Shown here: one piece after another, positions 34,340-34,580 of the stretch
Layout: each line of letters starts with the position of its first letter
How positions within the stretch are numbered: the first letter of the stretch is position 1
NCBI RefSeq assembly: GCF_044324875.1
Contig: NZ_CP172185.1
Source of the DNA: Escherichia coli
GTDB lineage: Bacteria; Pseudomonadota; Gammaproteobacteria; Enterobacterales; Enterobacteriaceae
DNA: 64,000 nt
Reading direction: 5' to 3' (one strand)
Made by a program: the position numbers and the translations under genes
Notes under the pieces: model-generated
What the model saw: the letters and a program-made list of their open reading frames with translations, nothing else
The model's database searches: none
What the model was told of the DNA's origin: nothing

Positions 34340-34580
34340 TTACCCAGCAACAACAGCGTTATGGTGCACCATGCCTGACTGATGAACTGCGTGCTCAGGG
34401 TTACCACTTCAACGTAAAACCGTGGCAGCAGGGCCGGACTGAACAAACGGCTCAGGACATTATCGGTAGGTGACACACTGGTTGTCTGCAAACTGAACCT
34501 ACTGGGGCGCAGTATGCGGCATCTTGCCGTGCTGTTGGAGGAGCTGTGCGAACGTGGTATTAACTTTCGTGCTCTGACTC
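34340..34580 (+). pseudogene. Mobile-element debris: IS3-family transposase fragment fused to Pin/Gin-family serine invertase fragment (pinH-like remnant)
   Basis: One frame translates [25 protein letters not shown] (IS3 OrfB-like [21 protein letters not shown]); another gives [49 protein letters not shown] (resolvase/invertase N-terminal catalytic domain) ending prematurely; no intact ORF. Confidence 0.6.

Follow-up and report, generated by a model that had tools for sequence, protein, structure and literature searches.

An IS3–pin fusion beside ypjA in Escherichia coli as the probable deletion scar of an ancient ssrA prophage

Introduction

The serine DNA invertases have their catalytic serine at about position 9 or 10, within a YxRVST motif. 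The Pin/Gin/Hin/Cin group includes pinE of e14, Fin of phage LLS and the invertases of P2-like phages. The hallmarks of the IS3 family of insertion sequences are terminal inverted repeats at both ends (5′-TG...CA-3′), the orfA-orfB arrangement with a programmed −1 frameshift, and a DDE domain.

The attP of the lambdoid phage LLS lies within a 29-bp match to the 3′ end of the tmRNA gene ssrA, and an invertase and tail-fibre genes have been reported for this phage (PMC12315714). Its genome presents two opposed tail-fibre genes with inverted repeats, the invertase Fin on the plus strand, approximately 3 kb of accessory genes, an attP arm, a tmRNA pseudogene with attP on the minus strand, and the integrase. 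In the e14-like prophage of strain 20AR1039, pinE is followed by one gene and then by the arm. The element CP4-57, with its psaA, is found at ssrA in E. coli K-12 (PMC10107115). “Grounded” prophage remnants and tandem islands at ssrA, of which CP4-57 with psaA and the attP of LLS are examples, are bounded by a duplicate of the ssrA 3′ end and an attP arm.

E. coli K-12 also carries the pseudogene pinH (b2648; 2783065–2783304), located beside ypjA (b2647). The same locus and sequence occur in the window, the stretch of 64,000 nucleotides of E. coli DNA that was analyzed as a whole here, in which pinH aligns to positions 34418–34657. The K-12 allele is 91% identical over 34040–35010 and has identical junctions. 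Its annotation is silent on an IS3 stub to the left of pinH, and runs about 80 nt past the demonstrable invertase homology along an open frame. The literature on pinH/ypjA and ssrA islands was searched and a description of pinH was not found there. The relic is thus already annotated, as pinH in K-12 and as a pseudogene by the PGAP pipeline elsewhere; the additions made here are the IS3 stub and the phage provenance. The combined sequence is very probably a non-functional pinH pseudogene joined to an unannotated IS3 stub, and marks the deletion scar of an ancient prophage integrated in the 3′ end of ssrA.

Organization of the Locus

The features of the locus are listed below in the coordinates of the window, with the basis for each in brackets.

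34180–34236, minus strand: displaced native ssrA 3′ flank with an intrinsic terminator (96.5% identity to the 57 nt downstream of ssrA in other strains; terminator scan)
34240–34261, minus strand: decayed duplicate of the ssrA 3′ end, the putative distal att of the old island (K-12 and H15 alleles)
34262–34334, no strand: putative 73-nt remnant of the distal, integrase-side arm and target of IS3 (position between pseudo-att and left end of IS3; conserved in all alleles)
34335–34352, plus strand: IS3 left terminal inverted repeat, nt 1–18 (exact over 16 of 16 nt in the window, and over 18 of 18 nt in K-12 and most alleles)
34353–34430, plus strand: internal IS3 orfB fragment, IS3 nt ~544–622, part of HTH_21, OrfB residues roughly 61–85 (blastn, BLASTP, Pfam)
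34430–34578, plus strand: fragment of a Pin-type serine DNA invertase, pin nt 124–272, residues 42–91 of about 184 (blastn, BLASTP, Pfam)
34579–34615, no strand: unassigned 37 nt that separate the ymgJ-like module from the end of clear pin homology (alignment to pin nt 273–325 compared with shuffles)
34616–39569, plus strand: ymgJ-like module (34616–34965) and autotransporter gene ypjA/ehaD (34995–39569) (87% identity to ymgJ-ycgI; ypjA annotation)
39575–39729, no strand: phage-type attP left arm, with a bidirectional terminator hairpin after the ypjA stop (identity to LLS and the e14-like prophage)
39730–40092, minus strand: intact tmRNA gene ssrA, the putative proximal att of the old island (ARAGORN; exact match to the ssrA 3′ end)

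The IS3 Stub

The complete IS3 of 1,258 bp (positions 971–2228 of comparison sequence L003) served as the reference. By blastn, positions 34340–34430 match IS3 nt 531–622 (L003 1501–1592) with 80 of 92 identities (87%; E 1e-27). The 27-residue peptide encoded here is 78% identical to residues 57–83 of IS3 OrfB (BLASTP, E 1e-12), and it has a weak match to the Pfam family HTH_21 (E 0.0079).

The left boundary of the stub is at 34335, as the sequence TGATCTTACCCAGCAA at 34335–34350 is an exact copy of nt 1–16 of the IS3 left terminal inverted repeat. Comparison with the complete IS3 and alignment of the alleles show that nt 1–18 are matched in K-12 and most other alleles. The stretch from 34335 onward was also considered as diverged internal IS3 sequence, a reading that was rejected since only 11 of 18 positions fit, against 16–18 of 18 for the left repeat. 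It follows that the left end of IS3 is preserved, that IS3 nt 19–543 are missing, and that 34334/34335 is the original insertion point. The likeness to IS3 of E. coli therefore consists of the exact left repeat (nt 1–16 in the window, nt 1–18 in K-12) and the 87% identity that extends over orfB nt 544–622.

Relative to the complete element, nt 19–543 are deleted and 96 of 1,258 nt remain. The homology ends at nt 622 of 1,258; the left repeat is present at 34335 and the right terminal repeat is absent. Unlike IS3 itself, the relic is devoid of orfA, the frameshift site and the DDE domain, with OrfB residues ~57–85 as the only coding portion left. The stub cannot transpose or be mobilized as a unit.

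The Invertase Fragment

The second part of the relic, at 34430–34578, matches nt 124–272 of pinE with 123 of 149 identities (83%; blastn, E 2e-41). At the protein level, the peptide is 68% identical to Pin residues 38–94 (BLASTP, E 4e-24), and the Pfam Resolvase profile PF00239 is matched with an E-value of 4.5e-8 over profile positions 49–100 of 145 only. Across the Pin/Gin/Hin/Cin invertases, including pinE of e14, Fin of LLS and the P2-like invertases, identity over residues 42–94 is 77–88% for nucleotides and 68% for amino acids. The fragment is the core both of K-12 pinH and of the PGAP “recombinase family protein” pseudogene, which in strain 042 maps to 34421–34579.

The first-pass annotation of this DNA had described an IS3 OrfB-like piece starting at 34340, joined in a different frame to a serine invertase piece that then terminates. 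Both pieces proved significantly similar to IS3 and to invertase sequences when these were searched, with the correction that the IS3 part starts at 34335. The two reading frames are indeed 2 nt apart, with CGT at 34357 in the IS3 frame and GGT at 34469 in the pin frame, and the latter ends at the TGA stop codon at 34601–34603. The annotation had further termed the fragment the catalytic N-terminal region. It does derive from the N-terminal catalytic domain, but residues 1–41, which include the nucleophile serine in the VRVS motif, are missing, as IS3 sequence stands in place of the gene’s first 123 nt. There is no in-frame start codon at the head of the pin frame.

The pin homology ends at nt 272 of 555, and the C-terminal helix-turn-helix DNA-binding domain is absent. 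About 27% of the invertase gene is left in the relic. The following 37 nt (34579–34615) may be decayed pin sequence; their alignment to pin nt 273–325 is no better than that of shuffled sequences (p = 0.19 for the K-12 allele). A search with a degenerate pattern for hix/gix/pix-like crossover sites gave three matches in 64 kb, where 4.1 are expected by chance, and none within 33–36 kb. No tail-fibre homology was found in the flanks of the relic. In contrast to the Pin/Gin/Hin/Cin systems, the relic has no catalytic serine, E-helix, helix-turn-helix domain, enhancer region, crossover sites or invertible segment. Without the catalytic serine, DNA-binding domain, crossover sites, transposase catalytic domain and right IS end, the relic is inert today.

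The Junctions

At the IS3/pin joint, IS3 nt ~622 is connected to pin nt ~124. Both points are internal to their parent sequences, and the two parts have the same orientation. The joint falls in an 8-nt stretch in which the parents share six of eight bases (CAAGCCTG versus AAGGCCTG); an example of the junction sequence of the fusion is CCGTGGCAGNAGGNCCGGAC. The left repeat is joined to orfB between two imperfect direct repeats, TTACCCAGCAATA and TTACCCGGTCAAAA.

As both joints are internal-to-internal and co-oriented, they carry the signature of deletion and not of transposition. On their sequence, both are deletions by illegitimate recombination and neither is an insertion point; the insertion is marked at 34335 by the authentic left end of IS3.

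The ssrA Boundaries and the Phage Arm

The intact ssrA gene is located 160 nt beyond the ypjA stop codon. At the opposite end, 34180–34236 is 96.5% identical to a 57-nt sequence that follows ssrA at a distance of 5 nt in strains 13P477T and L3_E36. This stretch holds a hairpin at 34206–34233, followed by a T-run on the minus strand, and it is the one terminator found in a scan near the relic. Next to it lies the distal repeat of the ssrA 3′ end, which is visible in other alleles: K-12 reads TGGTGG-GCTGGC and H15 reads TTGTTGAGCTGGCGG, while the reverse complement of the ssrA 3′ end is TGGTGGAGCTGGCGG. In the window’s own allele the repeat is badly decayed and barely recognizable, with no match to the ssrA 3′ end at 34240–34261 at up to three mismatches. 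With an intact ssrA at one end, and the displaced terminator and 3′ end at the other, it follows that 34262–39729 constitutes an insertion into the 3′ end of ssrA.

The side of this insertion that adjoins ssrA is derived from a phage. The arm at 39575–39729 shares 89.5% identity with positions 26314–26504 of phage LLS; with the e14-like prophage of strain 20AR1039, the identity is 93%. On the other side, 34262–34334 is weakly similar to the attP and right arm of LLS (p about 0.03, a figure that includes the att core), and the C-terminal peptide of this distal arm bears no resemblance to LLS gene 31 or to the prophage methylase. No integrase-like open reading frame (ORF) is present in 34262–39729, whose contents are limited to the stubs of IS3 and pin, the ymgJ-like module and ypjA. 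Compared with the grounded elements at ssrA, decay has here gone far further: no integrase or structural gene is left, and the remains amount to the arm, some 150 nt of the invertase gene and an autotransporter gene that resembles cargo.

In K-12, the same arm (160 nt) follows psaA, the pseudo-ssrA end left by CP4-57. CP4-57 therefore arrived later. The ypjA block and ssrA are adjacent in the window, whereas CP4-57 lies between them in K-12, and an ICE-like island (with a MobQ relaxase, DotA/TraY and an H-NS-like protein) in 042. The window thus belongs to a strain other than 042, for all the 99.9% identity seen locally. The ssrA nucleotide T357 is present in the window; it is missing from K-12 psaA and from the second K-12 pseudo-att, beside pinH.

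A further observation concerns the hairpin AAAAAGCCCACATCTGTGGGCTTT at 39581–39606, which directly follows the ypjA stop codon. It lies in the attP arm and is kept in phage LLS. It is predicted to terminate transcription in both directions, that is, of ypjA and of read-through from ssrA.

Comparison with Intact Phages

The order and strands of the window correspond to those of LLS and the e14-like prophage: the pin relic on the plus strand, the ymgJ-like module with ypjA, the arm, and ssrA on the minus strand. The orientation of the relic relative to the attP arm is likewise that of the invertase in both elements. LLS is the closest intact phage with the arm, and its invertase is only 68% identical to the relic; the e14-like prophage is the better match on both counts, with 83% for pin and 93% for the arm. 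The ypjA block fills the variable slot between the invertase and the terminator of the attP arm, in which LLS and the e14-like prophage have accessory genes.

Distribution and Evolution of the Relic

Strain 042 of E. coli matches the region 34100–34900 with 99.9% identity, and thousands of E. coli genomes contain this region. Counted as a contiguous match across both joints covering at least 80% of 34300–34640, the fusion is found in 3,039 of 5,426 complete E. coli genomes (56%). The left flank alone is present in 3,035 of the same genomes, and the fusion is therefore carried by essentially all genomes that have the locus. The fusion occurs at this locus only, the other matches in complete E. 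coli genomes being separate intact IS3 or pin genes. Among 11 diverse sequences of the locus (10 complete genomes and one metagenome contig), every joint covered is common to all. A search of species-representative genomes with YpjCB returned a single E. coli-like contig, with the same fusion. A comparison with strains carrying an intact pin at this locus had been proposed in the first-pass annotation; no such strain was encountered, as none of the 5,426 complete genomes examined has an intact pin, a full IS3 or a tail-fibre remnant there.

The relic evolves neutrally, because its diversity matches that of its flanks, the ratio of nonsynonymous to synonymous polymorphism (pN/pS) is about 1.5 in the pin frame among alleles, and some alleles are frameshifted (two of 11 aligned sequences). 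The mean pairwise diversity is 6.5–7.6% in the relic and 6.2–8.5% in the non-coding flanks. The alleles diverge by 7–13%. The pN/pS of 0.3–0.46 obtained against pinE is a leftover from the time when the sequence was a working gene.

An antisense ORF of 122 codons runs across the IS3 and pin relic on the minus strand (34315–34683). Its last 53 codons correspond to the PGAP hypothetical protein WP_000075277.1, called in 042-type genomes only. The ORF is probably spurious.

Proposed History

A lambdoid phage of the LLS/e14 type would have integrated at ssrA, displacing the original ssrA 3′ end and terminator to 34180–34261. Such a phage would have carried an invertible tail-fibre segment, a Pin-type invertase, accessory genes and attP. 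Next, IS3 would have entered the element 73 nt from its distal, integrase-side end, which set the left end of IS3 at 34335. Two losses may have followed, by illegitimate recombination between short, imperfectly matching sequences. The smaller and probably later one would have taken IS3 nt 19–543. The larger one would have extended from IS3 nt ~623 over the remainder of IS3 and nearly the whole prophage to pin codon 41; this would have included the integrase, the early genes, the head, the tail and the tail-fibre switch. A further rearrangement would have truncated pin after about codon 91–102 and left the ymgJ-like/ypjA module between pin and the attP arm.

We infer this order of events, and that pin and the arm stem from one and the same phage, from the arrangement of the remains; alternatively, the two could derive from two successive elements. 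The earlier proposal that insertion and deletion events followed one another here is borne out by the IS3 left end at 34335 and the internal-to-internal joints. Its view of the junction as the site of the deletion also holds, in that IS3 nt ~622 is joined to pin nt ~124. The tail-fibre switch that it supposed to have been removed was presumably among the DNA lost. The context supports this well, through the ssrA boundaries, the attP arm and the gene order in LLS and the e14-like prophage.

If the history is as outlined, the scar dates and delimits an old ssrA prophage, and places ypjA inside a former phage. It would also account for the “recombinase” pseudogene beside ypjA in more than half of E. 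coli genomes, and offer a clean example of a prophage immobilized by an IS insertion and then by deletions at short imperfect homologies. For K-12, the annotation can be corrected to include the unannotated IS3 left end and orfB stub that abut pinH. Beyond annotation hygiene and genome history the relevance is limited, and the phenomenon is known in kind.

Alternative Explanations

The pieces could have come from different elements stacked in tandem at ssrA, or the IS3-pin fusion could have arrived pre-formed, and the junction would then not mark the loss of a single prophage. Tandem accretion at ssrA does occur, as seen with CP4-57 in K-12 and the ICE-like island in 042 between ssrA and ypjA, and the divergence from the same reference prophage differs between pin (83%) and the arm (93%). 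On the other hand, there is no third ssrA-like fragment between pin and the arm, the order and orientation fit a single phage genome, and the restriction of the fusion to this locus speaks against a pre-formed unit; we consider such an origin improbable. Slightly less credit still is given to a P2/Fels-2-like myovirus prophage at ssrA as the source of the invertase in place of a lambdoid phage. An intact P2-like prophage does reside at ssrA in L3_E36, with a tail-fibre segment that can invert and an invertase whose strand relative to ssrA is the same as here, and P2-like and other Escherichia myovirus invertases are 77–85% identical to the relic. However, the invertase of the L3_E36 prophage itself is only 68% identical to it, and the spacer beside ssrA does not resemble the ends of the P2-like prophages in L018 and L020, but reaches 89–93% identity with the LLS/e14-like arm. 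A P2-like source is for these reasons less likely than the lambdoid one.

It is very doubtful that the relic has been co-opted, for instance to encode a small protein or an antisense RNA, or to regulate the ymgJ-like/ypjA unit as its promoter or as DNA bound by H-NS. Its position 416 nt upstream of ypjA, the 79-codon open frame in K-12, the 53-amino acid antisense ORF called by PGAP in 042-type genomes and the retention of the locus in 56% of genomes might be taken in favour of a function. Yet its diversity equals that of the flanks, while 190 nt beside the ypjA start show a tenfold dip, and the pN/pS of 1.5, the frameshifted alleles and the want of an in-frame start codon heading the pin frame all point the other way. 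The antisense ORF is unannotated in other alleles, promoter-like matches are not above shuffle expectation, and an Rfam scan of 31000–36000 (E up to 1) gave only tRNA and noise, with no match in the relic. A chance resemblance or an assembly chimera has nothing in its favour except the short length of the pieces, and is to all intents refuted by E-values of 1e-27 to 2e-41 and by the same contiguous sequence in more than 3,000 independently finished genomes. The deletion scar of a lambdoid ssrA prophage is retained as the preferred reading.

The ypjA Gene, its Leader and Neighbouring Genes

The first-pass annotation had placed the fusion directly upstream of the autotransporter. The relic in fact ends 416 nt before the ypjA start codon (34995), and the ymgJ-like module lies between them. 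This module (34616–34965) is a paralogue, 87% identical to the ymgJ-ycgI locus near minE; the ycgV region was also tried as the source of the paralogue and rejected, as the leader has no match to the K-12 ycgV locus. A copy of ymgJ-ycgI is present in nearly all complete E. coli genomes, with an overlapping probe matching 5,289 of 5,426. The autotransporter at that locus is usually a C-terminal pseudogene, and some strains (e.g., O139:H1 P15-25) have a full-length gene of the YpjA/EhaD type.

It is conceivable, but rather unlikely, that the lambdoid phage that integrated at ssrA brought ypjA/ehaD and its ymgJ-like leader into E. coli as cargo (a “moron”), and that the adhesin gene became fixed in the chromosome when IS3 mediated the collapse of the prophage. 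No close YpjA homologue was found in phage genomes by tblastn.

Within the leader, a valley of diversity is observed at ~34800–35000, roughly 190 nt before the ypjA start, with a mean pairwise diversity of 0.3–2% compared with 5–18% on both sides. This stretch is about 96% identical to the paralogous ymgJ locus. A 39-amino acid ORF called by PGAP at 34811–34930 differs from the paralogue at 5 nt. Since all five differences are nonsynonymous, the constraint at 34800–35000 does not look protein-coding. When the conserved leader of ypjA was folded as RNA, no structure signal emerged (z = +0.8). Inside ypjA, a run of 12-nt repeats at 38544–38645 encodes a proline-rich PNPD/PKPD linker before the beta-barrel domain.

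A deletion is seen at this locus in the O157:H7 strain Z1766 (positions 4878–4883 of L006, equal to ~34582 of the window), which starts no more than a few nucleotides from where the invertase relic stops. Its other end lies in the beta-barrel part of ypjA, and the ymgJ-like module and most of the adhesin gene are gone.

In 042, the gene order is gabD, lhgO, glaH, an amylase-family gene, tRNA-Ile, the DUF5507 gene ypjCB, the “recombinase family protein” pseudogene and ypjA/ehaD; in K-12, pinH lies between ypjB/ypjC and ypjA. The ypjCB gene of the window (32607–34061; DUF5507 family; 31–35% GC) is an intact ORF of 484 codons. In K-12, the ORF falls into two parts, ypjC and ypjB; strain 042, the O157:H7 strain examined and several others have it annotated as a pseudogene. 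The tRNA gene at 31775–31850 is called tRNA-Met (anticodon CAT) by ARAGORN; the annotations of K-12 and 042 have it as tRNA-Ile (ileY, Ile-CAU).
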